From: an uncultured bacterium
Lineage (GTDB): Bacteria > Patescibacteriota > Doudnabacteria > UBA920
Length of the DNA: 64,000 nucleotides
NCBI GenBank assembly: GCA_963749445.1
Contig: CAVVMJ010000010.1
Span: 117,738-181,737, forward strand
Direction: 5' to 3'
The translations under genes were made by a program, and so were the position numbers. Positions within the stretch are counted from its first letter, which is position 1. Each line of letters starts with the position of its first letter. The notes beneath the pieces were generated by a model. The model ran no database searches and was not told the DNA's origin. It saw only the letters and a program-made list of their open reading frames with translations. Shown here in pieces: positions 1 to 58,356 of the stretch.

Positions 1-1130
1 AAGGAGCCGGCGCAGGACAGCAGATAATATTTCCACATCCGGTAAAAAACCTCGCTATAATCCTTATTCAGTTCCGGCCACGCGGCCTCAAAATTCCCAA
101 ACCAGGCCATTAAGGTTTTGTCGTAATCCGCGCCAAAATTATGCCAGTCTTCCAAAATGAATAAATTTTCCGAAGCCGCCGCGATTTGCTTGGCCGAAGG
201 CAGCGCGCCATTGGAAAAAATATATTTTTTAACCCAAGGATCAGAGGTCGCGGCCGGACTGGAACTGTTGGAGCCGATGGTATGCAGCAAAAATAATCCG
301 CCATCTTTTAGGCAATTGCGGACAACTTTCATATATGTCCGATGATTTTTTGGGCCCACGTGCTCAACCATCCCCAAAGAAACTATGGCATCGTACTGGC
401 CTTTAAGGTCACGGTAATCCTGCAAATAAAATTCAATGGGCAGGCCTTGGCACATTTGCCTTCCCAACTCCACCTGTAATGACGAAATAGTGATTCCCAC
501 GCAACTAACGCCGTATTTCTCCGCGGCATACTTCATAAAACTGCCCCAGCCGCAGCCAATGTCCAAAACTTTCATACCCGACTTAAGGCCGATTTTGCGG
601 CAGACCAATTCCAGCTTGGCTTCCTGCGCCGCGTCCAAATTTGCCGCGTTTTCCCAAAAACCGCAGGTGTAAGTCATTCGTCTGTCCAACATTTTAGAGT
701 AAAGATTGTTTCCGATGTCGTAGTGCTTAAGCGTAAACGCGGCCTTTTTCTTTTGCAAATTAAAAAAACGGTTCTTAATATAATGAGCCGCCACGGTAAA
801 ATTAATTTTTAATTTATGATTTAAATCCGCGCCCATTAACCTGTGAAAAAACTGGTCAAGCGCCGGACAATCCCACCAGCCTGCCATATAACTTTCCCCC
901 AAACCCAAACTCCCGCGGCTTAAAACCTGCCCATAAAGACGGTCATCGTGCACCATAATATCCCACGGCCTGCCGCCCCCCGGCACAATGTCGGCAAAGG
1001 CCAGCAAATTGGTGATGATTTCCTTTTCTTTTGCATACTTGGACATATCTATGGTAATTTTATCAAGCCGCAACAAAAATGGCAAAAACGGCCGTTCTTT
1101 ACTTTTTCCCAAATTTATTTTATAATACAT
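1..1130 (-). CDS. cfa: cyclopropane-fatty-acyl-phospholipid synthase, 3' end runs off the window
   Basis: The minus-strand translation from the ATG at 1130 reads MYYKINLG...VLDIGCGWG (SAM-binding motif)...EDWHNFGADY...YYLLSCAGS and is collinear with E. coli Cfa. It is absent from the ORF track because it is not closed inside the window. Confidence 0.85.
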   Translation of the reverse strand, partial: MYYKINLGKSKERPFLPFLLRLDKITIDMSKYAKEKEIITNLLAFADIVPGGGRPWDIMVHDDRLYGQVLSRGSLGLGESYMAGWWDCPALDQFFHRLMGADLNHKLKINFTVAAHYIKNRFFNLQKKKAAFTLKHYDIGNNLYSKMLDRRMTYTCGFWENAANLDAAQEAKLELVCRKIGLKSGMKVLDIGCGWGSFMKYAAEKYGVSCVGITISSLQVELGRQMCQGLPIEFYLQDYRDLKGQYDAIVSLGMVEHVGPKNHRTYMKVVRNCLKDGGLFLLHTIGSNSSSPAATSDPWVKKYIFSNGALPSAKQIAAASENLFILEDWHNFGADYDKTLMAWFGNFEAAWPELNKDYSEVFYRMWKYYLLSCAGS

Positions 1131-1145
1131 TTTAGTTGTCTTATC

Positions 1146-1221
1146 TTGGGGCGTAGCCAAGTGGTAAGGCAGGGGCCTTTGGAGCCCCCATTCGAAGGTC
1201 CGAATCCTTCCGCCCCAGCCA
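1146..1221 (+). tRNA. tRNA-Gln (anticodon TTG), CCA encoded
   Basis: Cloverleaf: acceptor stem TGGGGCG/CGCCCCA (U1:A72), D-arm GCC...GGC, anticodon stem GGGGC/GCCCC with loop CTTTGGA, T-arm GAAGG-TCCGAAT-CCTTC, then G-CCA. Confidence 0.8.
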
Positions 1222-1230
1222 TCAACCTTC

Positions 1231-1265
1231 ATCAAAAAAGCACAGGCGCCTGTGCTTTTTGTTTT
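1231..1265 (+). terminator. rho-independent terminator after the tRNA
   Basis: Hairpin GCACAGGCGCCTGTGC followed by a T-run. Confidence 0.6.
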
Positions 1266-1320
1266 GGCCGATTAATTTGTCTTAAACATCAAACCATTAA
1301 AAATCACACAGCTATTTCTT

Positions 1321-2527
1321 TTATTGGCTTGGCGCGACGTAGAGGTAGGCGGTGCCGGAATTTGAGTAGCCTTTGGTATTGGTAGCCGTGACTTTGACAA
1401 TAAAGCTGTCAGAATATTTATAGGTATGAGTGGCGGAATCAATTGCGGCTATGGTGTCGGCGGAACCGTCACCCCAGGAAATGGTATAGGTTAAAGGTAA
1501 ATTTTGCGGATCGCTTGCGCTGGCCGTAACGGTCACGCTGGTTCCGACTGTCGCGCCGGCAGGCAAAGAAATCGCCGGCGCGGAAAAGCTTGATGTTTGG
1601 AGGCAAAATGACCGTCACCGTGGCCGAACTTGAAGTCGCGTTCCTTTGGCTGTCGGTAACCGTGACGCCCAAAGTGTAAGTACCGGCGGCATAATAAGTA
1701 TGCACCACGGAATTGGCCGTGACCGAATCGGATGGCGAGCCGTCGCTCCAGAAATAAGTGTAAACCAAAGGTAAATTCGGGTCTCCGGAAATGGCGCCAA
1801 ACGTGGCCGTGGTGCTGGCGTAAACGTTGGTCGGCAGGAAAATTTGCGGCGCATAAGAAATAACCGTAGTCGTGGAAGTCGTGGCGGCGGATGAGCCGGC
1901 GGAACCGGAACCCGAATTCGTGGAATTATTTTGGGAACCCGCCCCGCCGAATTGCAAGGTTGGTTGGCCTATGACCCGCGGGTCGTCATTAGTTAAAGTG
2001 CCCAAAGACCCGCTGGCTTTTAACACGGCAAGATCATACTTGTTGGCTTTAATCACTAAATTCCACTTGCCGCCATTAGACAAAAATATGTCCGCGCTAG
2101 GCACACCGATAAGGCCGACCTGGGCGGCATAATAAATTACTCCTTTGTTACTTAACCAACTGCCCCAGGGATGGGCAATGCTCGCGCTATTAATCACGTA
2201 AGTCTGTGCCAAGCCGTAATCGCTTAAGTCGCCCGCAATCACATTGCGCAAAGAATAACCCAAACCCGTAAAAGCCTTATAATTGGCAAAAGGAATTTTA
2301 GTGGTGCCGCTGATAAAATAAATCGTGCTGCCGTCTTTAACCAAACTGGCGTTGGGATACGGATAAAGGTTGGAGGTGGAATCACCCAAAACCTTAGGCT
2401 GGTTTAAAATGTCGGGAAAAGTGAGGGCGGAGGCAAAATGCGGCTCCGCGGCTACTGCCACAACGGCGCAAACCGCCAGAGGAATCAAAGTCCTGGCGCT
2501 TTTGGAAATTTTAAGACGATGATACAT
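1321..2527 (-). CDS. secreted protein with two PKD-like domains and an N-terminal domain shared with the 4030..6621 protein; reading frame broken near 1590-1610
   Basis: Signal peptide after MYHRLKISKS. WSDGS and WGDGS PKD motifs. Two overlapping ORFs (1469..2662 and 1321..1566) join at ...ATVTVILPPNIK / SFSAPAISLPAGATVG by a 1-nt shift. Confidence 0.6.
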
Positions 2528-2724
2528 AATTGTTAAATTAGTTTTTATTTCAAAACCGATTCTTAATCTAGCTATATTAATTATAGCAAATAAACGACTG
2601 CCGGTGTAGCGATTTAAAATCCTCCGTAAACATAAATTATTCTGATCAATCAAAAAAAGCACAGCCGCAAGGAAGTGCTTTTTTTGCTTTATTGACTTTG
2701 TTTGTGCAAAATTTTACGCTAGAA

Positions 2725-3201
2725 TTACTTTATACCGGCCTGAGTCAAGGTGTGATAACCAGCGCTAAGGCTGCCGGTCGTTCCGCCGAGACAGAAACTA
2801 ATCGCGTAACCGTTGGTGAGGGGCCCGGTTGATCCCAAATACTGATAATCGTTGGATCCCGGAGAAGTGCAGACGGGGTTGGTACCATCGGCCGGAGTTG
2901 GGGCCACCGGCATTGTGCCGATATATTTAGGTGTCAGTCCCTGACCGGTCGCAAAATTGCTGTCGCTTAATATCTTCGAACCGGCATGAGCGGCGTCAGA
3001 GGCAGTCGGATAGCTATTGGCGTCATTAAAAAACAACTCCATAGCACTAGCCAGCTGGCGGACATCGGCAATCCTTTTGGCGTCCCTGGCCTTGGCTCGA
3101 GCCGAGTTAAGGGCAAGGAGGACCACGGAAGCCAACAAACCGATGATGGCGATAACGACCAACAATTCAATTAAAGTAAAACCTTTATTTTTGTTTCGCA
3201 T
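2725..3201 (-). CDS. type IV pilin / pseudopilin (prepilin N-methylation motif)
   Basis: MRNKNKGFTLIELLVVIAIIGLLA: the class III signal G/FTLIEL followed by a hydrophobic helix. Confidence 0.85.
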   Translation of the reverse strand: MRNKNKGFTLIELLVVIAIIGLLASVVLLALNSARAKARDAKRIADVRQLASAMELFFNDANSYPTASDAAHAGSKILSDSNFATGQGLTPKYIGTMPVAPTPADGTNPVCTSPGSNDYQYLGSTGPLTNGYAISFCLGGTTGSLSAGYHTLTQAGIK

Positions 3202-3696
3202 TGTTTTTTCCCTTAAATACAGGACTTACGTACTGGTTAAATCAATTTTAAATAAGGGATAAATTGGCATCATCGAGTAGAAAATCGAGTAGAAAGTACC
3301 ATATAAGATGCTTGATGATGGATTACAGAAAACCTTGATTCTATTAGCTTTTCTGAAAAATCAAAATCTGACCTTCATCGGTACTTTTGTTAGTCGACTG
3401 CCATATTAACGCTTATTTTAGGCTGAATTTGCCTCTGCGTAAGTCCTATTAAATATTAATAAAGAGTGCAAAAAATATTTACGTCAAAAAAAACTTTTTA
3501 CAAAGCTTTAATTTAACAAGCTCGCTTATGTTTTTAATTATAAGGGAAAATGAGATTCAAAGCAAACAACTTATGCACAACCTTATTTTTTTAAACTATA
3601 AATTTTGATTTTGTCAAAGACTGCCGGGCAAAAAGACTCCCGACTTCATCAACATCCTTGGCCTCAAGGCTGCGGGCAGTCAAGAGGCTTTGTCAG

Positions 3697-3995
3697 GCAA
3701 ACAACCCAAAAATTAATGGATATCTTCGTGGTTATTCAAACCGCAGCTGACATTTATCGCTATCCGATAATTATCAGCTGGAGGTTGATGAAAGTTCCCC
3801 GCAGCAGAGCTGCGAGGTATCGACTGCATACTGGTTCCATTCCGAGCGAGTCCCAAATAGCAGCTGAGGACGAGTCGAGGAATCTGTTACTAATTTAACA
3901 GACCCCTCCGCTCCTCCTCGGATGCACTCGTCGTCGGTCGGGGTGGAGCACCCCGGAGCCCAAATTTTCGAGGAAATCTATTTGATTATACCTCG
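3697..3995. repeat. GC-rich modular repeat (family shared with 55540-55800 and the dinB insert 25330-25500)
   Basis: About 80 percent identity to 55575-55700 over the core ttccattccgagcgagt...gcagctgaggacgag.cgaggaatct...ccctccgctcctcctcg...tcgtcggtcggg...cgaggaaat. Confidence 0.7.
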
Positions 3996-4029
3996 AAGAT
4001 TCCCATCAAGGCTTTTAAGTTCTATTTAA

Positions 4030-6621
4030 TTACTTCATCCGTGAATCATTCGCGGTCATCAGCGGCAGTTTCGGCAAAGCCAAATCGTAACTATTGGCCT
4101 TAACGATAAAACCCGCCTGGCCGCCGTTGTTTAAAAACGTATTCCAATCCGCAATCGGAATTAAGCCGTCCGGCGTTAAAAAATAAACCGTCTTGCCGCT
4201 AAGCAGCCAGCTGCCGCGCGGGTGCGCGCCGCCGGCCGTGACCACCACCTTGCCTGAAGCCGCCAAACCGGAATTGCTTACCGCGGTCACATTATTAAAG
4301 CTAAAACCGAGGCCCAAGAATGCCGGGGCGTTGGAAAACGGGGTCTTGGTATTTTTATAAACGATGGAGATGGTGCCGGCTTCGTTAATCAGCTGGCCGT
4401 TGGCATAAGTAGGGTTGTTTGGCTGCGCAGCTTGCGTGGTAACTGAAATGCTAAGATTGGCGGTGGCCGTGGCGTTATTGCTGGAAACCGTCACGATAAA
4501 ATTGCCTGTGCCCGATGAAGCGCTCGGCGTCCCCGAAATCAATCCGGCGGATGACAGTGCCAAGCCCGTAGGCAGGGAGCCCGAAGTGACAGCATAAATA
4601 TAACTGCCGCTGCCGCCCGTGGCCTGGAGCTGATAACTATAAGACTGATCAAAGACGGCGGCCGGCAGACTCGTAGTCATAAAAGCCAACTGATTTGCGC
4701 CGCCGCTACTGACCGTGACGCTCAAACTGCCGCAGTTTGAACCGCCGGTCTGACAAATGGAGACCGCGCTGTTCCCTACAGCCACGCCGGTCAAATTAAG
4801 CTGTGACCCGCTTAAATTCAAAGTTATGGCGCTGGGATTGGAAATAGTGGAAAGATAATAATTGCCGCTGCCCCCGCTGATGGTGATGCTCTGGCTCTGG
4901 CCAACGGCCAAAACCGGACTGTTGTTGCTAAAACTAACCGCCCCCGTGCTGCCGGAAGCGCCGGCCACGGTTATGGCCATCACCCCGCAAACGGAAGTGT
5001 TATCGCTTTGGCAAACCGTGACGCTGGAGGTTCCGGCATTAAGCCCGGTCACATACAGGGAATTTGACTGCAGCGAGACCGCGGCCGTGGAAGGATTGGT
5101 GTTGCTGGAAATATAATACTTGCCATCACCGCCGGTTATGGCAACTGTCTGGCTCTGGTTTAAGGCGACGTTAACGTTGCTCGGGTTAAAAGTCAGTCCC
5201 CCGCCGGCGCCGTTAACCGTCACGTAAAGTGTGCCGCAAATGGTGCTGGAAGTCTGGCAAACCGTAATCGCGCTGCTGCCGATATTCTGCCCGACCAAAT
5301 AAAGCGAGCTGCCGCTTAAGCTCAAACTGACGATGCTGGCGCTGGTATTGTTGGAAATCGAATAAGTATTGACGCCGTTGGTGGAATAAATGGCAATGCT
5401 CTGGCTTTGGCCCACGGTCATTACCGGGTTGGAAGCGCTAAAACTAATCCCGCCGCTGTTGTTTCCGCTGCCGCTGGAGCCGACCTGCACGTACAAATAA
5501 ACGCAGCCATTGGTACTGCCGCCGGCTTGGCAAATGGTCAACGTGCTTGAGCCGGCCGCGATGGCGTAAACCGTGACACTCTGGCTGGTCTGGCTGCTGA
5601 TGTTGCTCACGCTGGCCGAGACTACGGAGGAATTGGAATTGTTAGTGATAGTTAAGGTGCCGGAACTGTTATTAACAGTGGCGGTGCCGGTATTGCCGGA
5701 TGTCAAGGTCAGCGTGTTCGGGCTGACGGTTATTCCGCCCTGCCCGTTGTTGCCCACGGTTACGTTTACCGTGCCGCAGTAGCTGGCACCGGTCTGGCAA
5801 ATGGACAGCGTGGCGTTTCCGGGCACCCCGCCGGAAAAGTAAAGCGTGGAGCCGGAAATGCTCGGGTTCGTAACCACGTTGGAATTGGAATTGCTGGAAA
5901 TATAGTAAGCGGAAGAGTTGCTGTTGCTCGGGCTGTAAATGGTGATGCTGGTGCTTTGGCCGGCGATGACAACCGGGTTTTGGTTGCTGAAATTTAAAGT
6001 AGTGGAACTGCCACCGTTGACGGACACCAAAATGCTGCCGCACTGGCTGGCGGAAACGGTTGAACATACCGTAATAGTGGCGCTGCCGGTAGCCTGTCCG
6101 GTAATAATAATTGAGTCGCCGCTGGCAAAAGCATTGGCTACCGATGAATTGGAATTATTGGTGACGGAAACATTGCCGCCGCTGGACGGGGAAGCGATGA
6201 CCGTCGCGCTGTTGGGGCTGCTGATGGAAACGCTGGTCTGGCTTAGCGTGAGAGTGCCGGAGATACAACCCGAAGCGCAGCTGCCGGGAGGGATCTGGAC
6301 CGTCGGCGATTGCAGCCCGCTGATTATCACGTAAATTAAAACCGGATTGCTGCTCCCGTCAAAATTAATGGTTTGGGTGGAAGTAAAATTGCCGTTTTGG
6401 TCGGTATTGCCCAAACTGCCGCCGCTGGTCGTAAAAGAGGCCGCGCTTTGCCGCTGGTATAAATAAACCGCGCTATTGGCATTGGCGTTACTGATAGTTA
6501 AAGTGACGGAGTTGCCGCTTGCCGAGGCGTATAAACTTGGCGTGCCTGCCAGGGCCACCCCGGCCAGCCCCCAAAATCCCAAACCCATGCTTAAAAAGAA
6601 CACAATCAATTTTTGTTTCAT
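4030..6621 (-). CDS. large repetitive cell-surface protein (signal peptide, about 7 tandem ~85-aa Ig-like repeats each with a conserved Cys pair, C-terminal ~125-aa domain shared with the 1321..2527 protein)
   Basis: MKQKLIVFFLSMGLGFWGLAGVALAG signal peptide. Recurring ...TITVCSTVSASQCGSILVSV / TLSICQTGASYCGTVNVTV / ITVCQTSSTICGTLYVTVN blocks. The C-terminus HPRGSWL...NGG...IVKANSYDLA aligns to the N-terminus of the neighbouring protein. Confidence 0.7.
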   Translation of the reverse strand: MKQKLIVFFLSMGLGFWGLAGVALAGTPSLYASASGNSVTLTISNANANSAVYLYQRQSAASFTTSGGSLGNTDQNGNFTSTQTINFDGSSNPVLIYVIISGLQSPTVQIPPGSCASGCISGTLTLSQTSVSISSPNSATVIASPSSGGNVSVTNNSNSSVANAFASGDSIIITGQATGSATITVCSTVSASQCGSILVSVNGGSSTTLNFSNQNPVVIAGQSTSITIYSPSNSNSSAYYISSNSNSNVVTNPSISGSTLYFSGGVPGNATLSICQTGASYCGTVNVTVGNNGQGGITVSPNTLTLTSGNTGTATVNNSSGTLTITNNSNSSVVSASVSNISSQTSQSVTVYAIAAGSSTLTICQAGGSTNGCVYLYVQVGSSGSGNNSGGISFSASNPVMTVGQSQSIAIYSTNGVNTYSISNNTSASIVSLSLSGSSLYLVGQNIGSSAITVCQTSSTICGTLYVTVNGAGGGLTFNPSNVNVALNQSQTVAITGGDGKYYISSNTNPSTAAVSLQSNSLYVTGLNAGTSSVTVCQSDNTSVCGVMAITVAGASGSTGAVSFSNNSPVLAVGQSQSITISGGSGNYYLSTISNPSAITLNLSGSQLNLTGVAVGNSAVSICQTGGSNCGSLSVTVSSGGANQLAFMTTSLPAAVFDQSYSYQLQATGGSGSYIYAVTSGSLPTGLALSSAGLISGTPSASSGTGNFIVTVSSNNATATANLSISVTTQAAQPNNPTYANGQLINEAGTISIVYKNTKTPFSNAPAFLGLGFSFNNVTAVSNSGLAASGKVVVTAGGAHPRGSWLLSGKTVYFLTPDGLIPIADWNTFLNNGGQAGFIVKANSYDLALPKLPLMTANDSRMK

Positions 6622-6961
6622 AAATAAGAGTTAATTTTAATTGATTCCACCCATCAAATCGGACGGAGCTTTACTATTATTATACTATTTTACGCCCAAA
6701 ACCGCAACTTTGGCTCAATTATTTTCATAAACAAAAAAACATAACCGCGGAGCGCTTTTTTGAGTTGCCGATGATTACCACTTTGCTTTATTCACTCGTG
6801 AATAAAGCAAACCTATTCTACTGCGCACTACGCGATGCGCGGCGCGGCGGATGCCGGTTTTTACCTCTAACCGCATTATTTCCGCATCATCTGTAAACTA
6901 TATCTGTTGCGTTTGCGCGTACGTACGCGTATATTAAACAAATCTTTTGTTACATTTTAAT

Positions 6962-8296
6962 TTATTGCCCCAAAGCGGCAATATCGGATTCGTATTGTTG
7001 AGTTTGCGCGATTACATTATCGCCGTAAAAACGGTAGGCGACGTTGGTGCCGCCGGAAAAATAGCGCATGGCCGCGTTCCATTCCCCCTGTTGGGTATTG
7101 TCCGCGCCGTTAGCTCTTAACTTGATGCCCGCGGCCAAAAACGCGTCGCGGATGTCCCACGGGTTGGCGGTTTTGCCGGTAACGGATGACACCTGGTCTT
7201 TATAACCCATCCAAGTGGAGGGAATAAACTGCGCCGGACCCATGGCCCCGCCCCAGCCGACCTGTTTGCCTTTGCTGTTTTTCATCGGGCAGGAAACCGG
7301 CGTCACGTCCGGGTCCAGACCAAGGTCGGAAGTAATCTGCAAAAACGGCTGGATGTCGCGATTCGGTTTCATCACCACTTTATAACTTTTTTCCGGCGGA
7401 TCCCCGGGACGATTGCAGGTGCCCACGTTTTTGCCCAAATTGGATTCCTGCGTTAAAATCGCCAAAAGGAAAGCCGGTTCCACGCCGGTCTGGGTGGAAA
7501 CAAACTGCGCGATTTTTAAGGCGTTGCCAAAAGTAATTTGAGTGGTAATGCCAAGCAAATCGTAAATCCGGTTTTGGATTTCCGCGGCCCTCCGCTTGGT
7601 ATCGTTTAAGGTAATCTGGTAATCGGACTCTTTACCTTTGGTTTGCTGCAGCAAATCGTTTTGCTGGCCCACGGTATCGCCGAGCTGCTTCTCCTGCAAA
7701 GCCTGGATGGACAGATAATTTTGCGCGTCGCTTTGCTGCTGGGTAAAATCCTGCTCCTGCTGCTGGAGCTGGGTTTTGGTATCCCGGGCCTGGATAAGCA
7801 AAGCTTTTAGATTATCGGATACGGACGCGTAATCCTGGACTTGGGTCAAAATATCCGACAAGCTGCCCTGCTCTACCACGGTATACAAAAACGGTTGGCT
7901 GTCCTGCTCGTTGATGGCGCGCACGGCACCGCCGATTTGCTGCTCCAAAAGTTCGGACTTCAACTGGTTGGCCTGGATGCCCAGCTGGGTATCGGAAATT
8001 TTTTGCGTTAAATCGGCAATTTTTAAATTACTGGCCTGGATTTGCAGCTGCAAACTGGCCTGCTGTTTTTTCAGGCTGTTAAGTTTGTTCTGTAAAGTAT
8101 TTTTTTCGCCCTGGATAACGCTCAGCTGCTGCTGGAACTGATCGATTTCCTGCTGGATGGCCTGCAGCTGCTGCTGAAGCTGCGCCTGGGTGGCCGCGGT
8201 ACTGGAAGCCTCGTCCGCGCGGATAATAACCGGGGCGAATAAAAAAATGCTGATGGATAACAGGACTATTAATTTGGAAGTTGTATTACTGGGCAT
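6962..8296 (-). CDS. secreted coiled-coil protein with C-terminal SLT/MltB-like lytic transglycosylase domain
   Basis: Signal peptide, a Q/L-rich heptad region, then LAILTQESNLG (catalytic Glu-Ser) and GAMGPAQFIPSTW motifs. Confidence 0.7.
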   Translation of the reverse strand: MPSNTTSKLIVLLSISIFLFAPVIIRADEASSTAATQAQLQQQLQAIQQEIDQFQQQLSVIQGEKNTLQNKLNSLKKQQASLQLQIQASNLKIADLTQKISDTQLGIQANQLKSELLEQQIGGAVRAINEQDSQPFLYTVVEQGSLSDILTQVQDYASVSDNLKALLIQARDTKTQLQQQEQDFTQQQSDAQNYLSIQALQEKQLGDTVGQQNDLLQQTKGKESDYQITLNDTKRRAAEIQNRIYDLLGITTQITFGNALKIAQFVSTQTGVEPAFLLAILTQESNLGKNVGTCNRPGDPPEKSYKVVMKPNRDIQPFLQITSDLGLDPDVTPVSCPMKNSKGKQVGWGGAMGPAQFIPSTWMGYKDQVSSVTGKTANPWDIRDAFLAAGIKLRANGADNTQQGEWNAAMRYFSGGTNVAYRFYGDNVIAQTQQYESDIAALGQ

Positions 8297-8338
8297 CTTT
8301 CACATTATACCATTTTTTGCTATGATTTACCTATATAG

Positions 8339-8438
8339 TTGATGGGCATCTTCGCGGTACCACAATCGCTAACCGATGGTTATCGGATAGCGATAAATCC
8401 AGATCAAGAGGTTAAATAACCACGAAGAGGCCCATTAA
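8339..8438. mobile_element. MITE family 1 copy (TIR TTGATGGGCATCTTCG ... CGAAGAGGCCCATTAA)
   Basis: Terminal inverted repeat plus a shared internal core ccgatgg.tatcggata; about 100 bp; one of 5 copies. Confidence 0.75.
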
Positions 8439-8462
8439 GACAATTAAACCAGCGAAACAAAT

Positions 8463-8834
8463 ATGGCTGACAAATTGGAGCAGGAAGTAAGCGAATACGC
8501 CAAGCTGGCCAAAGAAAATTCCAATATTGACGTGGCCAGTCTGATGCTGCACGCCCTCAATGAAAAATCCAACAAAGTTTCCTCCAAAATGAAATGGTGG
8601 GTCTACATGTTATCGGTTGGCCTCCCGATGGTCGGTTTCTTATTTGCCGCGTATTATTACTTTTTTAGCGACAAAGATGACGCCCAGCAAGTCGCCAATA
8701 TTTGTATCTTTCTTTCCATCCTCTGCGTGGGCATATTTTGGATAACCGGAAAAATCATGTTGTCAGGAAGCGGCACCAGTTTGAACCAGATAGAACAAAT
8801 CACGCCGCAGGAAATACACGACACCATTCAGTAG
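8463..8834 (+). CDS. small membrane protein, hypothetical
   Basis: ORF with two hydrophobic helices; no recognisable family. Confidence 0.5.
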   Translation: MADKLEQEVSEYAKLAKENSNIDVASLMLHALNEKSNKVSSKMKWWVYMLSVGLPMVGFLFAAYYYFFSDKDDAQQVANICIFLSILCVGIFWITGKIMLSGSGTSLNQIEQITPQEIHDTIQ

Positions 8835-8950
8835 TAATCGCAAATATACAAATTCAAACAAATATACAAATCCGATGTCGGCTGAATTTCCTGTAAGCTA
8901 TAACTCATGGCTATTTGTATATTTGTGTTGATTTGTATATTTGAGAACAC
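8831..8950. repeat. MITE family 3 copy (GTAGTAATCGCAAATATACAAAT ... ATTTGTATATTTGAGAACACTAC)
   Basis: Palindromic AAATATACAAAT words. A second copy lies at 20319-20440 with the same ends. Confidence 0.7.
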
Positions 8951-8955
8951 TACCT

Positions 8956-10494
8956 ATGCCCAAAGAACTAACGATTGTCCACATCGCTTCCGAATGTTCG
9001 CCTTTTGCCAAAATCGGCGGACTGGGCGACGTAGTTTCCGCGCTGCCCAAGGCTCTGTCCGGTCTCGGACATAAGGTGGCGGTCATTTTGCCGCTGTACG
9101 AGGGCGTCAAAAAACAAAATTTGGTTTTGCGGGATATTTTGGAAACCGAAGTCAGCCTGCTCGGCAAAAATTTTTACGCCGGGCTCAAACAATGCGAAAC
9201 CGGCGATGGCGTCTCAATTTTTTTTGTTGATAACGAACAATTTTTCGGCAAACGGAACAATATTTACGGCTACGAGGATGATGGCTTGCGGTTTTTATTT
9301 TTTAATTTGGCCAGCCTCACCCTCTTGGATATGGCGCTCGGCCAAAAAATTCCGCCATTTGAACAAGGCAATATTGACATTCTGCACTGCCACGACTGGC
9401 ACGCCGGACTCATTCCCCAGCTGCTGCATTGCAATCACAGATTTGATCATATCACAGAAGTTGCCACCACGTTTACCATCCACAACCTGGCCTTTCAAGG
9501 CACGAACGACTGGTGGGCGGTACCGAAAAATAAACGGGATATGGGGCACGGCGACCCCACGGCCAAAGGCGTTAATCCCAAATACTTAAACTTTACCCGC
9601 CGCGCGATTTTGCACGCGGACGTGATTAATACGGTCAGCGAGCGCTACGCCGCCGAAATTCTCACGCCCAAATTCGGCCATGGGCTGGACAAGTTGCTAA
9701 AAGCCAGGAAAGACCGCGTGTTTGGCATCATTAACGGCGTGGATTACGCGGTATTTAACCCCCAGTTTGACCAATACATTTACGAAAAATTCGGCGCCGA
9801 TACCATTGAAAAAAAATTGGACAACAAGCTCAGGTTCCAAAAAGAAATCGGCTTGGAGGAAAATAAAACCATCCCGCTCATCGGCATGGTCAACCGGCTC
9901 ACCGAACAAAAAGGCTTTGAGCTGATGATGCAGCTTATGCCCAATTTGCTCCGCCTGCCTCTGCAGTTGGCCGTGGTCGGCAGCGGCGACCGGGGGTACT
10001 TAAAATTTTTCCGCGCGGCTTCCCGCCGGCACCCGGAAAAAATCGCGGTCTGCTCGCCTTTTACCGAGGAAATGGCCGCCAAAGTTTACGCGGCGTCCGA
10101 TATGTATTTAATGCCGTCGCGCTTTGAACCCTGCGGCATTTCACAATTGATATCTTTGCGCTACGGCAGTGTGCCCATTGTCCACGAAACCGGCGGCCTG
10201 CACGACACCATTTCCGATTTTGACTCGCGCTCCGGCCGCGGCAACGGCTTTGTGTTTTCTTCCTACACCGAAGAAGATTTTTTGATTGCCGTAGTCCGGG
10301 CTTTGGAAAATTACCACTACAAAGACGCCTGGCGCGCTTTGGCCAGTTCGGGCATGAAGGAATCTTTTTCCTGGGACCTGCCGGCCCAAAAATATTTGCA
10401 GTTGTACCAGCTGGCGATAAAGAAAAAGAAGACTGATGAAAAACCAAAAAATATCATCAAAAAAGTTTTTGATTTGGTCGCGGAACGGGTATGA
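8956..10494 (+). CDS. glgA: glycogen/starch synthase (GT5)
   Basis: MPKELTIVHIASECSPFAKIGGLGDV (K-x-GGL motif); ~513 aa; ends with a TGA stop. Confidence 0.9.
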   Translation: MPKELTIVHIASECSPFAKIGGLGDVVSALPKALSGLGHKVAVILPLYEGVKKQNLVLRDILETEVSLLGKNFYAGLKQCETGDGVSIFFVDNEQFFGKRNNIYGYEDDGLRFLFFNLASLTLLDMALGQKIPPFEQGNIDILHCHDWHAGLIPQLLHCNHRFDHITEVATTFTIHNLAFQGTNDWWAVPKNKRDMGHGDPTAKGVNPKYLNFTRRAILHADVINTVSERYAAEILTPKFGHGLDKLLKARKDRVFGIINGVDYAVFNPQFDQYIYEKFGADTIEKKLDNKLRFQKEIGLEENKTIPLIGMVNRLTEQKGFELMMQLMPNLLRLPLQLAVVGSGDRGYLKFFRAASRRHPEKIAVCSPFTEEMAAKVYAASDMYLMPSRFEPCGISQLISLRYGSVPIVHETGGLHDTISDFDSRSGRGNGFVFSSYTEEDFLIAVVRALENYHYKDAWRALASSGMKESFSWDLPAQKYLQLYQLAIKKKKTDEKPKNIIKKVFDLVAERV

Positions 10495-10948: not shown

Positions 10949-12364
10949 ATGTTCTGGGCCAACTTTCTCCACATCTACCAGCCGCCGACGCAAAAACCCT
11001 ACTGGGTCAAACGCGTGGCCGAAGAGTCCTACCGGAAAATTTTTGCCGGGCTTTTGGCCACGCCCAGCGCCAAAGTCACTATGAACATCAACGGCGTGCT
11101 TTTGGAGCTGCTGGATAAAAACGGCTGCGGAGACATTTTGGAAAGCATCAAAAAACTTTTGGACAAAAACCAGCTGGAACTGGTAGGCTCGGCCAAATAC
11201 CACGCCATGCTGCCGTTTTTGCCTGAACGCGAAATTGTCAGGCAAATCCAACTGAACGAACAAACTTTAAAAAACTATTTGGGATCATCGCTGTCATTAA
11301 AAGGGTTTTTCCCTCCGGAAATGGCTTTTGACCCCAAGCTGGTGCCGATTATTTCCTCCTTGGGCTACAAATGGATTATTTGCGATGAGCTGTCTTTCCC
11401 TGCGCCCGGACAAAAACCCCAGTACGACCGCATTTATACCGATGCGCAAAACCCTTCCGTGGCTTTATTTTTCCGCGAGCGGCACATGAGCTGGGTCATC
11501 CTTTCCGGCCAGGTCGGCACCGGCCAGCTTTTGGTTTCCAGCCTGGGCGATCGGCTTAAAAAAAACGAATTCCTGCTTACGGCCATGGACGGCGAAACTT
11601 TTGGCCACCACCGGCCGGGATTGGAACAGCTGTTGTTTGAAATTTTTAATGCCGATAAACTAAAAACGGTCCGGATGTCGGAACTGTTTGACTTATTTCC
11701 CACGCGCGAAGCCCTCACTCCGCGTCCCTCCACCTGGGCGTTAATGGAAAAAGATCTGGAAGAAAAAAAACCGTTCTCGCGCTGGCAGGATCCGGACAAT
11801 ATCATCCATCAATTGCAATGGCAGCTGACCGATTTGGCGATAAACACCGTGGAGCAGGCGGACGAGCGTGCGCCCGGATTTCCCGAGGCACGCCAAACTT
11901 TGGACAGGGCGCTGCATTCCGACCAGTATTGGTGGGCCTCGGCGCGGCCGTGGTGGAGTTTGGAAATGATCGAACTCGGCGCCAAGGAACTTTATGACGC
12001 GGTGCTGCTTACGCCGGGAATTTCCGACGAAACGCGCGAGCTGGCCAGGCATTTGTACCACACCATTGTGTTCACGGGTTTTGACTGGCAGCGCTCCGGA
12101 CTGGTGGACGAGCTCTCCCGCCGGGAAGACGAAGCCGTAAGGCAGCGCACGGACATCGGCATCCCCAAACTGCCCCGGGCCGAAGTGGAAAAAATGGTTA
12201 CCGGCCTGCAAAAAGAAATGGCGGCCGTGGCGGCCGCGCAGGAATACGAGCGCGCGGCGCAAATCCGCGACCGTATTAAGGAACTGCGCGGTTATGTTTC
12301 GGATGACGGCTCTGCATTAAAAACTTCCGATGAGGGCAATCGGGAGTTCAAGTTGAATCCTTAA
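10949..12364 (+). CDS. GH57-family glycoside hydrolase (amylase / branching-enzyme type) with C-terminal UVR-like motif
   Basis: N-terminal NFLHIYQPP (GH57 HxHQP signature). C-terminal AQEYERAAQIRDRIKELRG resembles a UvrB/C UVR helix. Confidence 0.75.
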   Translation: MFWANFLHIYQPPTQKPYWVKRVAEESYRKIFAGLLATPSAKVTMNINGVLLELLDKNGCGDILESIKKLLDKNQLELVGSAKYHAMLPFLPEREIVRQIQLNEQTLKNYLGSSLSLKGFFPPEMAFDPKLVPIISSLGYKWIICDELSFPAPGQKPQYDRIYTDAQNPSVALFFRERHMSWVILSGQVGTGQLLVSSLGDRLKKNEFLLTAMDGETFGHHRPGLEQLLFEIFNADKLKTVRMSELFDLFPTREALTPRPSTWALMEKDLEEKKPFSRWQDPDNIIHQLQWQLTDLAINTVEQADERAPGFPEARQTLDRALHSDQYWWASARPWWSLEMIELGAKELYDAVLLTPGISDETRELARHLYHTIVFTGFDWQRSGLVDELSRREDEAVRQRTDIGIPKLPRAEVEKMVTGLQKEMAAVAAAQEYERAAQIRDRIKELRGYVSDDGSALKTSDEGNREFKLNP

Positions 12365-12815: not shown

Positions 12816-14273
12816 TTGTTTATGAATGTGCTATTCGCCGCGGCCGAATGCGCGCCGCTGGCCAAAGTCGGAGGCTTGGGAGACGTCATTGGCTCTTTGC
12901 CCAAAGCCTTAAAACAAATTGGCGTTGACGCGCGGGTGATTTTGCCGAGGTATAAAAATATCCGGCTGCCTACGGAAAGTAAATACCAACCGATAAAAAT
13001 TCTGGTAACTTTTAACGACCAACCGATGTCAGTTACGGTCTACCAAACCACCTTGCTCGAAAGCAGCATTATTTTGTATCTGTTGGAAGAGCCGGCGATA
13101 TTCGGCAGCGGCACGGTTTACGAAACAACCGATGCCACGCCGGGTAGCGAAGAGGAAATAAAAAAATTCCTGTTTTTTTCCCAGTGCGTCGCGGAATTCC
13201 TAAAACAAAAAATCTGGCAGCCCGATGTCCTGCACGCGCACGATTGGCACCTTGCCCTCACTCCCCTTTTAATCAAATTGGCAAAACTCCCAATCCCGAC
13301 CTTGCTGACCATCCACAATCTGGCCATGCAGGGTTTGGCCTCGGCTGAAAGTCTGGAGGCTTTGGGCGGAAATTTAATCGGCCAGCCGTCCTTGCGCCAA
13401 GATTTGGCCAAATCCGGCAAAATTAACCTGCTGCGGCAAGGTATTTTGCACGCCGACGCGGTCAGCACGGTCAGCCCCACTTATGCCAAGGAAATTACCG
13501 CCGCGGAATTTGGCGAAGGTTTAGAAGCTGATTTAAACAAACTGGATAATATTTACGGCAATCTAAACGGCCTTGACGAGTCGGTTTGGAATCCGGCAAC
13601 TGACCGGCTTTTAGCCAAACCTTATGATAAATCTGCGCCGGAACTCAAACTGCAAAACAAATCAGCTCTGCAAAAATTACTTGGACTAAAATCCGCCGAT
13701 GATGTCCCGCTCATTGGGATCGTCTCCCGCCTGACCGGCCAAAAAGGTTTTGATTTGCTTGAACCCATAAGCAAAGCGCTGACAACTTTGGATTTCCAGA
13801 TGATAATTTTGGGCGTGGGCGAGCCCGCAATAGAAAACTTTTTTGCCGATCTTTGCCGCAAACATCCCCAACGGTTCACCTTGCAAAAAAAATTTGACGA
13901 GCGCCTGGCCCACCAAATTTACGCGGGCGCCGATATTTTCCTGATGCCCTCGCGTTTTGAACCCTGCGGCCTTGGCCAAATGATCGCCATGCGCTACGGC
14001 AGCCTGCCGCTGGTTCGCTCAACCGGCGGGCTAAAAGATACCGTAATTAATTTAGCGGATAATTTAAGCAACGCGGATTTCGCCACGGGGTTTGTGTTTG
14101 ACGATTATGATCCTTTGGCGCTTTTGGCGGAATTAAAACGCGCTCTTAATCTTTATCACCAGGACCAAAAAATCTGGGACCGGATGAGCCAAAACGCCAT
14201 GGCCAAAGATTTATCGTGGGCTAATTCAGCAAAAAAATACTCTGAACTCTATCAAAAAATTATTAATTCATAA
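12816..14273 (+). CDS. glycogen synthase paralog (GT5)
   Basis: MFMNVLFAAAECAPLAKVGGLGDVIGSLP; collinear with GlgA. Confidence 0.85.
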   Translation: MFMNVLFAAAECAPLAKVGGLGDVIGSLPKALKQIGVDARVILPRYKNIRLPTESKYQPIKILVTFNDQPMSVTVYQTTLLESSIILYLLEEPAIFGSGTVYETTDATPGSEEEIKKFLFFSQCVAEFLKQKIWQPDVLHAHDWHLALTPLLIKLAKLPIPTLLTIHNLAMQGLASAESLEALGGNLIGQPSLRQDLAKSGKINLLRQGILHADAVSTVSPTYAKEITAAEFGEGLEADLNKLDNIYGNLNGLDESVWNPATDRLLAKPYDKSAPELKLQNKSALQKLLGLKSADDVPLIGIVSRLTGQKGFDLLEPISKALTTLDFQMIILGVGEPAIENFFADLCRKHPQRFTLQKKFDERLAHQIYAGADIFLMPSRFEPCGLGQMIAMRYGSLPLVRSTGGLKDTVINLADNLSNADFATGFVFDDYDPLALLAELKRALNLYHQDQKIWDRMSQNAMAKDLSWANSAKKYSELYQKIINS

Positions 14274-20936: not shown

Positions 20937-21634
20937 GGCTCTAGACTAGAAGATTTGTTCTGTTGTAGTCTAAAGATGTGATTAAATGGTCAAAACTGAC
21001 AAAATTTCAATGGGTCAAAGTAAAACACGGTTTTTGTGATGATTTAACTGCGACCCAAACAGCTAAACTTACAGGAATTAATCGCAACACAGTTAACAAG
21101 TACTACAAACTTTTTAGGGAGAAAATCGCCAAACATCAGGAGTCGGTCAGCAATGGGTTCAGCGGCCAGGTAGAGCTGGATAAAAGTTACTTCGGTGGCA
21201 GGAATAAAGGCAGGCGGGGCAGGGGTACAGAGAAGATTCCGGTCTTTGGCATTAAAAGGCGTAACGGTAGAGTCTACACCCAAATTATTAAGAATGCCAG
21301 TAGCGCCGAAATCAGGCCAATTATCAGGGAGTTTGTGAGGAGAGGCAGTATTGTGTATACCGATGGTTGGCGGGCTTACGACGGATTGGTTCTGGATGGC
21401 TACAAACATTTTCGGATTAATCATCGAATTTTTCAGTACTCCGACCGTAAAGGGGCCCACGTTAACGGCATCGAAAACTTTTGGAGCTTTTCCAAACGGC
21501 GGTTGGCAAAGTTTAACGGCATTAATCCTAAAAATTTTTACCTACACCTAAAGGAATGCGAATGGCGCTACAATGAGAAGCCCGATTTGTACAAAAAACT
21601 ATCATTAATTCTTAAAATCTTCTAGGCAAGAGCC
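20937..21634 (+). mobile_element. IS1595-family (IS1016-like) insertion sequence, 698 bp, 20-bp TIRs, 7-bp TSD TTAGTAT
   Basis: Left TIR ggctctagactagaagattt. Right TIR (reverse complement) ggctcttgcctagaagattt. TTAGTAT at 20930-20936 and 21635-21641. Confidence 0.8.
20978..21625 (+). CDS. IS1016-type (IS1595 family) transposase
   Basis: ...LDKSYFGGRNKGRRGRGTEKIPVFGIKRRNGRVYT...VYTDGWRAYDGL...INHRIFQY...HVNGIENFWS... is collinear with IS1016 transposases. GTG start. Confidence 0.85.
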   Translation: MIKWSKLTKFQWVKVKHGFCDDLTATQTAKLTGINRNTVNKYYKLFREKIAKHQESVSNGFSGQVELDKSYFGGRNKGRRGRGTEKIPVFGIKRRNGRVYTQIIKNASSAEIRPIIREFVRRGSIVYTDGWRAYDGLVLDGYKHFRINHRIFQYSDRKGAHVNGIENFWSFSKRRLAKFNGINPKNFYLHLKECEWRYNEKPDLYKKLSLILKIF

Positions 21635-55539: not shown

Positions 55540-55800
55540 CCTTTTCCGCCCAATGGATCCTCCCCTGCGGCAGAACTGCGAAGTAACATCTGCATTTTGG
55601 TGTTCCATTCCGAGCGAGTTCGAATGCAGCTGAGGACGAGCCGAGGAATCTATCACTTTTACAGATCCCTCCGCTCCTCCTCGCCCATTCGGCTCCGCTC
55701 AGGGCGACCCTGAGTTTATCGAACGGGTCGGATGCTACTTAGTCGTCGGTCGGGATGGAACATCCGGAACAGAATTCCGAGGAAATATTCTTGATTACAA
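55540..55800. repeat. GC-rich modular repeat (same family as 3697-3995; carries the extra module that is also present, inverted, inside dinB)
   Basis: gttccattccgagcgagttcgaatgcagctgaggacgagccgaggaatct...ccctccgctcctcctcg + module cccattcggctccgctcagggcgaccctgag... + tcgtcggtcgggatgga...cgaggaaatattcttgatta. Confidence 0.75.
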
Positions 55801-58356
55801 CCCACGCTCAATATCCCCTACCCCGGCGCTCATACTTTCGGCAACTTGGCCAGCTTCCAAAAGTTCCTCTTCCACTTCGGCCCGCGGCCGGCCGTATTTT
55901 AAGCGCGATAGTTGCCGGATGGCTTTGGCCAGTTCTTCGTTGCGGTTTTGCGGCAGCGCGTAAGTGGCCATGTTAAACGGCTTGCTGGCCGTGCCGTTAA
56001 TCATCAATTTGACGTAAGTGACGAACCGGTCAATGTTGACCAAATCAAACTGGTTAAAGGTCGGGGCAAATTCCTTGCCTAAAACTTCGGCATCCTCGGC
56101 GCCGGTGCGGAATACCACCATGGTACCGACGTTGCCGAACACGGCGTTGCGCAAATCTTTACTGGCCGCTCCCTGGGCGCCGGCCTGCTGTTCCAACTGC
56201 CCGAGATATTGGTGCGCCATAATCAAGTTCAATTTGTATTTCCTGGCTTCTGATAAGATAGACGAAAACGCGTCGGTGATAAAATTTTGGAACTCGTCCA
56301 CGTACAAATAAAAATCTTTCCGCTGCTCTTCGGGGATGTCGGCGCGCGACAGCGCCGCGATTTGGATTTTACTGACAAGGATGAGCCCCAATAACTTGGC
56401 GTTAATTTCCCCTGTCCGGCCTTTGGACAAATTAACCAACAACACCTTGCCCTCGTCCATAATTTTACGGAAGTTAAAGCCGGATTTCGGCTGGCCCACA
56501 ATGTTGCGCATCATGGCGTTTTCCACAAACCGGCCGACTTTGGAAATCAAATAGCCCAACATTTCCGATTTATGGAAGTCCGAAGTCTTGGCCATTTCTT
56601 TTTCCCAAAACAGCCGCACCACCGGGTCTTTGACTTTGGCGATTTTGTACTTTTGGAAGTCCGTGTCCGTAAAAATGCGCGGGATGTCGGTAATGGTGCC
56701 CGGGTGTTCTTCGTCGGCCATGAGCGTAAGCATGGCGTTGCGCATATTGTGCTCAAACATCGGCCCCAGCATGGCCGGATCCGTGACCAATTTGTAAAAA
56801 ATCTGGATCATTTCCTGGACCGCGAAATCCTTTTGTTCCTCGCTGTCCACTTCCAGCATGTTCAATCCCAAAGGCCGGTCCATATCAAACGGCTCAAACA
56901 CAATAATGTCCTCGGCACGTTCCTTGGGGCAGCGCGTTAAAATATCTTCCACCAAATCGCCGTGCGGGTCCACCACGCACAAACCTTCGCCGTTTTTAAT
57001 GTCCTGGATGGCCATATTGGCGAGTAGCACGGATTTGCCGCCGCCGGTGCGGCCGAGAATGTAGGTATGACGGCGGCGATCGTCGCGCGTCATGTAAATC
57101 GGTGTTTCCACGTCACGGTAAACATTTCGGCCAAGCAACAACCCTTCCTTAGCCGCGTTAATGGGCGGCGGCGCTTTTTTGGACATCAGCCATTTGATGT
57201 TAGGAGTTTCGATGAACGGCGTAGGCAAGTGCCACAGGCTGGCCAGCTCTTCGGTGTTTAAAATGTTCAAACGTCCGCTGTCTCGGAACACGCGGAAAAT
57301 ATAATCCTTCAAAATCTCGTTCTTGTCGCGGCGTTTGATTTTAAGGCCGTTAAACGGCGGCATATTAAACTGCAAAAACGCCGAAAGCAGGCTCTTCATG
57401 TGGCTTTGGGCGTTGCCTGGAGTTGGAGACGAAGTTACCAAACGGACATTGACTTTATACCCCGGGCGGCTGGCTTTTTCCTCCAGTTTTTTGACGATTT
57501 CATTTTGCATGGGCGTCAGCTGGATGGGCGAGGCGTAGCCGGATAAATCCTTATGCGCGTGCGACGGCTGGAAATTTTTGGACGAGCCGCTGCCAATACC
57601 GGCCATGGCGCGGCCAAGCGCGCGAAAAAAGCCGATAAACAACCGGTAGGCGTGCCCGCGCTCTATCATTTCGGGATTCTTGCCCTGCTGGATTTCCAGC
57701 GCCATATGCCTCGGCACGCCCTGCCAGGTGGTGCCGGCCGGCGAAAGCACAAACTGCACGGCCGCGCCCTCGTTTTCGCCGAGCTTGCTCATGGCATTGG
57801 TCAAAGAGTTCAGCGGGTCGGATTCCATTACTTTATAAGTGCGGAACGGGTAGGCGTATTTTTTGGACAGATCTAATTCTTCCACTTCAATTTTGCCGTC
57901 ATCCTGGAACGGGTTATAGCCGCGCACCTGCTCCACAAACGCGTGCGGATACTGGGCCTGGATCTGCTTTTCCACCAGCTCCTGCAAATGTTTGGGACAG
58001 TTGACGAAAAAGGAAATTTTTTTGTCCGTGCAGGCAATCTCAAAACTGTAATAATCCTTGCCCTGCAGCCAGCCCCTGCTGTGGCCGGACTCCGAAAGAG
58101 TTGCGAACAATTGCTCGGCTACGGCAATCAGCTGCTTTTTTTCCTCGATGGTAGTCTTCATGGCGTTCTGCTGGTTCTTTTCTTCCGGATTTTCTTTGGG
58201 CATCATAATTTCCAAAAACACCCAGTCCAAAGTCCTGGGCACAATGTGTTTGGTATGGTAGACGTGTCTTTTATAATAATAAAAAAGGACAGCCAAAAAT
58301 ATGACTATCAATCCAAGCAGTACTAATACGGCAATATTAAAAATCGATAATTCCAT
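55795..58356 (-). CDS. membrane-anchored TraD/TraG/VirD4-like coupling-protein ATPase (853 aa) with ~400-aa uncharacterised N-terminal domain
   Basis: N-terminal TM helix. Walker A YILGRTGGGKSVL. YLYVDEFQNF...LSEARKYKLNLIMAHQYLGQLEQQAG resembles the TraG-D_C Walker B block. Confidence 0.6.
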   Translation of the reverse strand: MELSIFNIAVLVLLGLIVIFLAVLFYYYKRHVYHTKHIVPRTLDWVFLEIMMPKENPEEKNQQNAMKTTIEEKKQLIAVAEQLFATLSESGHSRGWLQGKDYYSFEIACTDKKISFFVNCPKHLQELVEKQIQAQYPHAFVEQVRGYNPFQDDGKIEVEELDLSKKYAYPFRTYKVMESDPLNSLTNAMSKLGENEGAAVQFVLSPAGTTWQGVPRHMALEIQQGKNPEMIERGHAYRLFIGFFRALGRAMAGIGSGSSKNFQPSHAHKDLSGYASPIQLTPMQNEIVKKLEEKASRPGYKVNVRLVTSSPTPGNAQSHMKSLLSAFLQFNMPPFNGLKIKRRDKNEILKDYIFRVFRDSGRLNILNTEELASLWHLPTPFIETPNIKWLMSKKAPPPINAAKEGLLLGRNVYRDVETPIYMTRDDRRRHTYILGRTGGGKSVLLANMAIQDIKNGEGLCVVDPHGDLVEDILTRCPKERAEDIIVFEPFDMDRPLGLNMLEVDSEEQKDFAVQEMIQIFYKLVTDPAMLGPMFEHNMRNAMLTLMADEEHPGTITDIPRIFTDTDFQKYKIAKVKDPVVRLFWEKEMAKTSDFHKSEMLGYLISKVGRFVENAMMRNIVGQPKSGFNFRKIMDEGKVLLVNLSKGRTGEINAKLLGLILVSKIQIAALSRADIPEEQRKDFYLYVDEFQNFITDAFSSILSEARKYKLNLIMAHQYLGQLEQQAGAQGAASKDLRNAVFGNVGTMVVFRTGAEDAEVLGKEFAPTFNQFDLVNIDRFVTYVKLMINGTASKPFNMATYALPQNRNEELAKAIRQLSRLKYGRPRAEVEEELLEAGQVAESMSAGVGDIERGL

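Follow-up and report, generated by a model that had tools for sequence, protein, structure and literature searches.

Introduction

By predicted fold, the closest described counterpart of the domain considered here is EccB (Pfam family PF05108; Protein Data Bank (PDB) entries 3x3n, 4kk7, 5cyu, 6sgy, 7np7 and 7nps), a core component of the type VII (ESX) secretion system with repeats R1 to R4. EccB1 contains four repeats of about 55 amino acids (aa), which pack against one another and build a periplasmic assembly (PMC4769845). A weak resemblance of these repeats to the wall-binding phage protein PlyCB has been noted, and peptidoglycan binding was proposed as an untried idea (PMC4769845). Here, we analyse a 64,000-nucleotide stretch of DNA (hereafter the window) from an uncultured bacterium of the Doudnabacteria (Patescibacteriota; assembly GCA_963749445.1, contig CAVVMJ010000010.1, positions 117,738 to 181,737 of the forward strand). 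Two of its genes encode secreted proteins, one with immunoglobulin-like (Ig-like) repeats and one with PKD domains, that carry the same domain at one end. They bracket a type IV pilin gene, and a gene for a coiled-coil lytic transglycosylase lies next to them.

Patescibacteria, ultra-small bacteria also known as the candidate phyla radiation (CPR), account for a large share of bacterial diversity and live attached to other cells, and their surface proteins are mostly unannotated. A first-pass annotation, made from the sequence of the window, interpreted the four genes as a self-contained attachment module, in which the transglycosylase could open the peptidoglycan for a pilus. We find that the shared segment belongs to an extensive and so far uncatalogued family of domains in secreted patescibacterial proteins, and we weigh a role of this domain in retaining proteins on the cell envelope against other possible roles, including that of a pilus-linked module.

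A shared domain and its family

Residues 739-862 of the 863-aa Ig-repeat open reading frame (ORF) and residues 102-230 of the PKD ORF align with 53 identities in 130 positions (41%; BLASTP, E 1e-22). The homology of the two copies is thus far beyond chance, and the alignment of about 125 aa between the C-terminus of one protein and the N-terminus of the other, on which the first-pass annotation was built, is real. A hidden Markov model (HMM) scan of the window found these two copies only. Neither matches Pfam (at E<=10), NCBIfam or PDB sequences, and phmmer and hmmsearch runs against the PDB with single sequences and with two profiles (A5 and A9) returned chance-level matches only, in agreement with the earlier impression that the domain belongs to no recognised family. 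One candidate, a beta-propeller hairpin of the NHL/'Pizza' type, was rejected because the match covers only 19 residues. The known non-covalent wall anchors (SLH, CWB2, LysM, SH3b, PG_binding and CW_binding_1) gave no Pfam or NCBIfam match to the domain, and no description of it was found in the literature.

When a library clustered at 50% identity was searched exhaustively by HMMER with a profile of nine sequences, 1,638 family representatives reached E<=1e-3; of these, 968 reached E<=1e-10 and 282 reached E<=1e-30. A word-indexed protein search had yielded no more than 6, 3 and 30 short fragments. With residue 1 of the domain set at residue 737 of the 863-aa protein, the nearly invariant positions are K23, the stretch H64-P-W-G-S-W69, N96-G-G, N107, D110, D123 and R125. 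All 18 loci taken from GTDB species-representative genomes belong to Candidatus Doudnabacteria, to metagenome-assembled genomes (MAGs) labelled 'Saccharibacteria' or to unclassified Patescibacteria. By this taxonomy, the window almost certainly comes from a Doudnabacteria-like CPR genome.

Placement of the domain was mapped in 155 proteins, comprising the listed search matches and earlier short word-index fragments. The domain ends no more than 10 residues from the C-terminus in 99 of them and lies within the first 100 residues in another 50; the remaining six are incomplete or partial copies (three) and two-copy proteins (three). The opposite-end placement seen in the window is therefore real but no peculiarity of this pair, since a position at one terminus or the other is the general rule of the family. 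The family members inspected begin with signal peptides, and the linkers that join domain and passenger are rich in S, T, G, P and N. Neither an LPXTG motif nor a hydrophobic C-terminal tail was present in any of 51 proteins with the N-terminal arrangement (N-type).

The passengers are diverse. A Pfam scan of 130 full-length members identified Ig domains of the PF13629 type (48 members) and of the Big_2 type (25), He_PIG (27), cupredoxin/plastocyanin (16), PKD (8) and TIG (7), and also fn3, right-handed beta-helix (pectate-lyase-like), glycoside hydrolase family 5 (GH5) cellulase (3), carbohydrate-binding module family 60 (CBM60) and dockerin domains. The fusion of a cupredoxin (plastocyanin/azurin) domain to the terminal domain in 16 of the 130 suggests blue-copper electron carriers tethered outside CPR cells.

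The 863-aa protein of the window illustrates the C-terminal arrangement. A signal peptide is followed by about seven Cys-containing Ig-like repeats (Big_2/PF13629-like), a He_PIG-like Ig domain, a linker and the terminal domain. Its full-length orthologues include P0015 (70% identity) and proteins at the related loci L015, L021-L024 and L028, those of L021 and L022 being 70% identical. The protein matches PF13629 at E 2.8e-12. The name of that family, 'Pilus formation protein N terminal region', was considered as a clue to pili and rejected, because what it matches is the series of Big_2-like Ig units along the protein.

At two loci from ENA assemblies (L001, 2-1836, and L002, 3400-10400; ERZ250394xx/395xx), stops or frame changes interrupt the large surface-protein ORFs that precede the domain ORF. 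The many short adjacent ORFs at these loci suggest indel-rich long-read assemblies and not stand-alone domain genes.

Predicted structure and relation to EccB repeats

The 127-aa domain was modelled with AlphaFold2 (AF2) from a 29-row alignment at high confidence (predicted local distance difference test, pLDDT, 95.3; predicted template-modelling score, pTM, 0.87). In the model, it consists of two consecutive beta-beta-beta-alpha-beta units. The two halves also align in a profile-profile comparison (hhalign; probability 93%, E 3e-7, 47 columns). The halves are homologous, which makes the domain an internally duplicated unit of about 55 aa.

Foldseek searches of the PDB with the whole domain placed EccB structures (EccB1, EccB3 and EccB5) at ranks 1-10 (E 1.9e-3 to 0.29, probability 0.33-0.96). 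With a single repeat, ranks 1-11 were all EccB, with TMq values of 0.42-0.60 (0.54-0.60 in 9 of the 11). The single-repeat superpositions gave root-mean-square deviations of 2.8-4.9 Å over 46-69 columns with 9-21% identity. The structure prediction thus points to EccB repeats as the nearest known fold, and the domain has neither a standard Ig nor an SLH fold.

At these modest scores, the domain may share with EccB the length of the unit (about 55 aa), a small antiparallel sheet with a helix and the packing of units in pairs; both are extracytoplasmic. The differences are considerable. Unlike EccB, the proteins that carry the domain have no N-terminal transmembrane helix, no central core and no four-repeat pseudo-symmetric body, and no ESX genes are present in the window. 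The domain is a two-repeat terminal module on unrelated passengers, and it is found in Patescibacteria, not in Actinobacteria or Firmicutes. PlyCB, the wall-binding subunit of the streptococcal phage lysin PlyC, is absent from the Foldseek matches, has no detected sequence similarity to the domain and differs from it in forming an octameric ring.

A link at the sequence level is provided by one family member, P0010, which matches PF05108 at 39.3 bits (cut-off 27) over the region of EccB repeat R2 by summing weak stretches; it is the only member above the PF05108 cut-off. P0010 is a metagenomic protein of 1,423 aa with 15 alternating 'FRDG' and 'HPDG' units of about 60 aa and a C-terminal region that contains a HEWGH (HExxH-like) motif. 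A search of the PDB with P0010 gave no match. Extended arrays of units are not confined to it: a 1,330-aa protein at locus L004 carries about three divergent repeat units at its N-terminus. Overall, the models indicate that the domain may be distantly related in fold to the EccB repeats; the relation fits an anchoring role but is weak.

Related folds are also predicted in phages. Among predicted viral structures, the best matches were uncharacterised actinophage proteins; the whole domain matched a protein of Rhodococcus phage Weasels2 at E 1.6e-5, and single-repeat superpositions on actinophage proteins reached 1.5-2.8 Å. A tblastn search of phage genomes with the domain of the window gave a chance match only. 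The repeat pair of P0010 matches small hypothetical proteins of Streptomyces phages, namely Comrade gp46 (L062, 4779-5183) and proteins in 13 related phage records. The phage protein contains one repeat unit with up to 46% identity to a P0010 unit, and its gene lies just downstream of that of a very large minor tail protein. These matches are suggestive, although the phage proteins are unannotated.

Function of the domain

We consider it moderately likely that the domain is a non-covalent retention module of the cell envelope, an assignment of function and ligand that is made by analogy. The domain would hold exported proteins on the envelope, at a wall polymer or an S-layer, without a covalent bond, in the manner of SLH or CWB2, and the Ser/Thr/Gly/Pro-rich linker would set it apart from its diverse passengers. 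The proteins of the window that would be held at the surface in this way are the Ig-repeat protein and the PKD protein. The proposal follows from the terminal placement, the signal peptides, the flexible linkers, the lack of any other anchor and the eclectic passengers, which include enzymes and electron carriers. The analogy with SLH and CWB2 is functional only. These domains also occur at the N- or C-terminus of secreted proteins with diverse passengers, among them enzymes and Ig-repeat proteins, and the clustering of paralogous domain genes in the genome recalls that of Gram-positive anchor domains. In fold and sequence, the domain is unrelated to them, as is clear from the lack of a Pfam match to SLH, CW_binding_2, LysM, SH3b or PG_binding.

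Several points weigh against an EccB-related envelope anchor. The Foldseek E values are marginal (2e-3 at best) and the whole-domain TM-scores are low (0.29-0.36), and the copies in the window do not match PF05108 in Pfam at E<=10. Peptidoglycan hydrolases usually carry classical wall-binding domains, and no such hydrolase is among the fusion partners of the 130 members. The isoelectric point is near neutral (median 7.9), with no charge signature. Further, the invariant polar residues (K23, H64, N96, N107, D110, D123 and R125) could equally mark a site for an external ligand.

This last point leads to the alternative that the domain is the working end of these proteins, that is, a lectin-like or host- or substrate-binding module (an adhesin tip or a carbohydrate-binding module) with which these episymbiotic bacteria would grip hosts or polymers, and that does not anchor its own protein. 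The invariant polar and aromatic residues resemble a ligand site, and a terminal position suits an exposed tip as well as an anchor. The domain co-occurs with GH5, pectate-lyase-like beta-helix, CBM60 and dockerin domains, and the single repeat in small actinophage proteins encoded beside a minor tail protein would also be in keeping with binding to an outside partner. However, such proteins would have no other means of cell retention, given that an LPXTG motif or transmembrane tail occurs in 0 of the 51 N-type members. In one-third of the members, the domain directly follows the signal peptide and would be nearest to the membrane, and a host or polysaccharide binder would serve no obvious purpose in the 16 cupredoxin fusions. 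Because tethered cupredoxins and enzymes are among the partners, a retention module fits better than an adhesive tip, and we regard this alternative as a whole as rather unlikely.

A protein-protein docking or lattice module, either self-assembling like an S-layer or pairing like cohesin and dockerin, would array surface proteins on the cell and would explain why domain genes cluster in at least nine loci. Such genes adjoin each other in the window and at L004, L009, L015, L020, L021/22, L023, L024 and L026 (three genes in the last). The related EccB repeats do pack together in their periplasmic assembly (PMC4769845; PDB 7np7/7nps), and family members carry from 1 to 15 tandem repeat units, the upper limit being that of P0010. 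Nevertheless, no candidate partner protein was identified, and the high-confidence monomer model packs its two repeats against each other with no obvious open interface. We consider this explanation improbable, and retention on the envelope remains the reading that we favour.

The pilin and the question of a conserved module

The 158-aa protein encoded between the two surface proteins is a true prepilin, as had been proposed, with scores that exceed the cut-offs of both PF07963 N_methyl (40.3 against 21.2 bits) and TIGR02532 (36 against 16.3 bits). It has the leader MRNKNKG / FTLIELLVV and a GspG-like head; the sequence reads KG-FTLIELLVVIAIIGLLA, with the G/FTLIE motif and the hydrophobic N-terminal helix of a class III signal peptide. 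It is the only prepilin in the window. A scan of 30 large ORFs, the majority of those of >=150 aa in the window, revealed no PilB, PilC, PilM or PilD, and the pilus machinery may lie elsewhere in the genome. The scanned ORFs comprise housekeeping functions (glycogen metabolism, PBP2, MreB, glycolysis, ribosomal proteins and SecY), a VirD4-like ATPase, an IS1595 transposase and two ORFs without a Pfam match.

Conservation of the neighbourhood was assessed in 61 loci (18 from GTDB, 39 from metagenomes and 4 from exact-protein look-ups), which together cover 590 kb around domain-bearing genes. The locus searches used narrow alignments of the N-type and C-type domain copies, and the sample is biased towards closer relatives. 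The prepilin motif was present in none of the 61 loci, either as a strict pattern, which does detect the pilin of the window, or as a looser one. No homologue of the SLT catalytic domain was found in them, and the single match (L010) covers only the coiled coil of a protein that combines a coiled coil with a C39-like peptidase. Further, close orthologues of both surface proteins (the PKD protein at L003 and L004; the 863-aa protein at L015, L021-L024 and L028) have different neighbours.

The pilin of the window matched by phmmer four proteins at three of the loci, in the head only. These proteins lack a prepilin leader (L024, 8946-9968, minus strand; L020, 12061-12972 and 14946-15563, plus strand; L052, 10522-12240, plus strand). 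At 4 in 590 kb, they are not more frequent than the pilin in the window itself (1 in 64 kb). The head pattern common to them and the pilin of the window is LLALNSAR.KARD.KRI.D...YYND...YP...P.DG.C...Y.Y...FCLG. The head is fused to a zinc-ribbon/RDD membrane protein at L024, to lipoprotein signal peptides in the two proteins at L020 and to a long membrane-anchored protein at L052. Pilin heads appear to be reused as ordinary surface domains.

A joint attachment module made up of the pilin, both domain proteins and the transglycosylase, in which the enzyme opens the wall and the domain couples the surface proteins to the pilus, is very improbable: the four genes are co-oriented within 7 kb, and 3 of the 61 loci have pilin-head-like proteins 0.2-6 kb from a domain gene (L024, L052 and L020), but no prepilin and no SLT gene occurs in the 590 kb around 61 domain genes, the head proteins have no prepilin leader and are no denser than in the window, close orthologues of both surface proteins neighbour other genes, the intergenic gaps are large and AT-rich, no pilus machinery was found in the window and the PKD gene is frameshifted. 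The model of a self-contained attachment module is largely refuted by this lack of conservation, and the co-occurrence with pilins in related genomes that the first-pass annotation had proposed as a check was searched for in these loci and not found. The pilin and the transglycosylase are independent genes, and their adjacency to the domain genes is specific to this genome and not a conserved module.

The PKD protein

In its main frame (frame A), the PKD protein consists of a signal peptide, the shared domain, a linker rich in S, T, G and N, a first PKD domain and an out-of-frame tail. Both PKD domains are recognised by PKD_4 (E 1e-8 for the first and 3.2e-9 for the second). The gene is not one intact ORF, since the second PKD domain lies in another frame (Table 1). 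Intact orthologues exist in two Doudnabacteria genomes (L003, 397 aa; L004, 398 aa), with both PKD domains in frame, and a DNA alignment with these shows that the window carries one extra base near 1590-1600 (within 1585-1605). This 1-nucleotide insertion reflects either a genuine pseudogene or truncation, in which case the product would retain the shared domain and one PKD domain, or an assembly error. A programmed frameshift was considered and rejected, as the orthologues need no change of frame and only one additional base sets the window apart from them. The start of the protein is most likely M46, a choice that would give a signal peptide. A public gene call of 352 aa (P0014) agrees exactly with the product from M46 and has the same truncation.

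The coiled-coil lytic transglycosylase

The 444-aa protein encoded upstream of the surface proteins is a predicted coiled-coil lytic transglycosylase, as first annotated. It has a signal or transmembrane segment, a Q-rich coiled coil of about 230 aa and a C-terminal SLT_2 (MltB-like) domain, and the C-terminal 195 aa (residues 250-444) match PF13406 SLT_2 at 32.4 bits (cut-off 24.3). The translation contains the motifs LTQESNLG and GAMGPAQFIPSTW, which would provide the catalytic Glu-Ser pair. No match was obtained in the PDB by phmmer with either the full-length protein or its C-terminal part.

In hydrolases of the PcsB, EnvC and RipA type, a coiled coil regulates a wall-cleaving domain associated with division. 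The 444-aa protein shares their order of a long N-terminal coiled coil and a C-terminal wall-cleaving domain. It differs from them in that the catalytic part is SLT_2 and not CHAP, LytM or NlpC/P60, and no ftsEX genes were seen in the window. By this analogy, a role as a division hydrolase would be at least as plausible as wall opening for a pilus. We see no evidence for a functional tie of the protein to the pilin or to the domain proteins, and it is treated here as a simple neighbour. At L010 (8478-9791, minus strand), a protein with a coiled coil and a C-terminal C39/CHAP-like cysteine peptidase region is encoded divergently from the adjoining N-type domain gene. The protein is built like the transglycosylase, but its catalytic domain differs.

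Layout of the locus

The four genes occupy the region 1321-8296 in the same orientation (Table 1). They are separated by non-coding gaps of 340 bp (6622-6961), 828 bp (3202-4029) and about 197 bp, with GC contents of 30-39%; because the gaps are this large and AT-rich, the four genes do not form a tight operon. Six-frame translation of the gaps 3202-4029 and 6622-6961 gave stops throughout, and the 828-bp gap had no tblastx match in the related loci. Over 1100-8900, promoter-like and terminator-like patterns were no more numerous than in shuffled controls. A perfect GC-rich palindrome sits between the tRNA-Gln gene and the stop of the PKD gene and is probably a bidirectional terminator; it was overlooked by the consensus terminator scan because its loop is shorter than 3 nucleotides.

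Table 1. Features of the locus, with positions in the 64,000-nucleotide window
Feature	Position	Strand	Evidence
Coiled-coil SLT_2 protein, 444 aa	6962..8296	-	ORF list
Ig-repeat protein, 863 aa	4030..6621	-	ORF list
Shared domain at the C-terminus of the 863-aa protein (its residues 737-863)	4033..4413	-	BLASTP, AF2
Type IV prepilin, 158 aa	2725..3201	-	PF07963, TIGR02532
PKD protein, frame A	ORF 1469..2662; likely gene 1469..2527 (352 aa from M46)	-	
Shared domain at the N-terminus of the PKD protein, immediately behind its signal peptide	1973..2359	-	BLASTP, HMM E 5.8e-61
PKD domain 2, in the displaced frame of the PKD gene	1321..1566	-	PKD_4
GC-rich palindrome AAAAAGCACAGGCGCCTGTGCTTTTTT, with A and T runs on both sides	1234..1260	no strand	read from sequence
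tRNA-Gln	1147-1221	+	

Elsewhere in the window, a GH57 enzyme with a C-terminal UVR motif (10949..12364) is encoded between two glycogen/starch synthases that are paralogues of each other (8941..10494 and 12816..14273). An IS1595-family transposase lies at 20978-21625 and an 853-aa VirD4/TrwB-like coupling ATPase at 55795-58356. The 558-aa ORF at 50460-52136 matches nothing in Pfam at E<=1e-5.

Implications for the surface biology of Patescibacteria

The main outcome is an abundant, structurally well-defined and uncatalogued terminal domain, apparently a two-repeat variant of the EccB-type unit and probably an envelope anchor. The pilin-flanked arrangement in which it was noticed should not be propagated in annotations as a 'pilus attachment operon'. 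With a length of 127 aa and a model pLDDT of 95, the domain would be a tractable target for binding studies, and the EccB repeats, whose function is unexplained, would gain a distant relative. Its presence in more than 1,600 protein clusters would allow annotators to flag surface-retained proteins in Patescibacteria genomes, and it would point to tethered cupredoxins and glycosidases as surface functions.

We tentatively propose, as a plausible but by no means settled extension, that Doudnabacteria and related Patescibacteria use the EccB-repeat-like module as their main non-covalent anchor at the cell surface, a lineage-specific counterpart of SLH and CWB2. If so, this would be the first hint at what the EccB repeats do in type VII secretion systems. 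The module would also define the displayed 'surfaceome' of these bacteria, including Ig-repeat adhesins, PKD proteins, glycoside hydrolases and tethered cupredoxin electron carriers, and a single profile could predict the proteins that these uncultured episymbionts expose.

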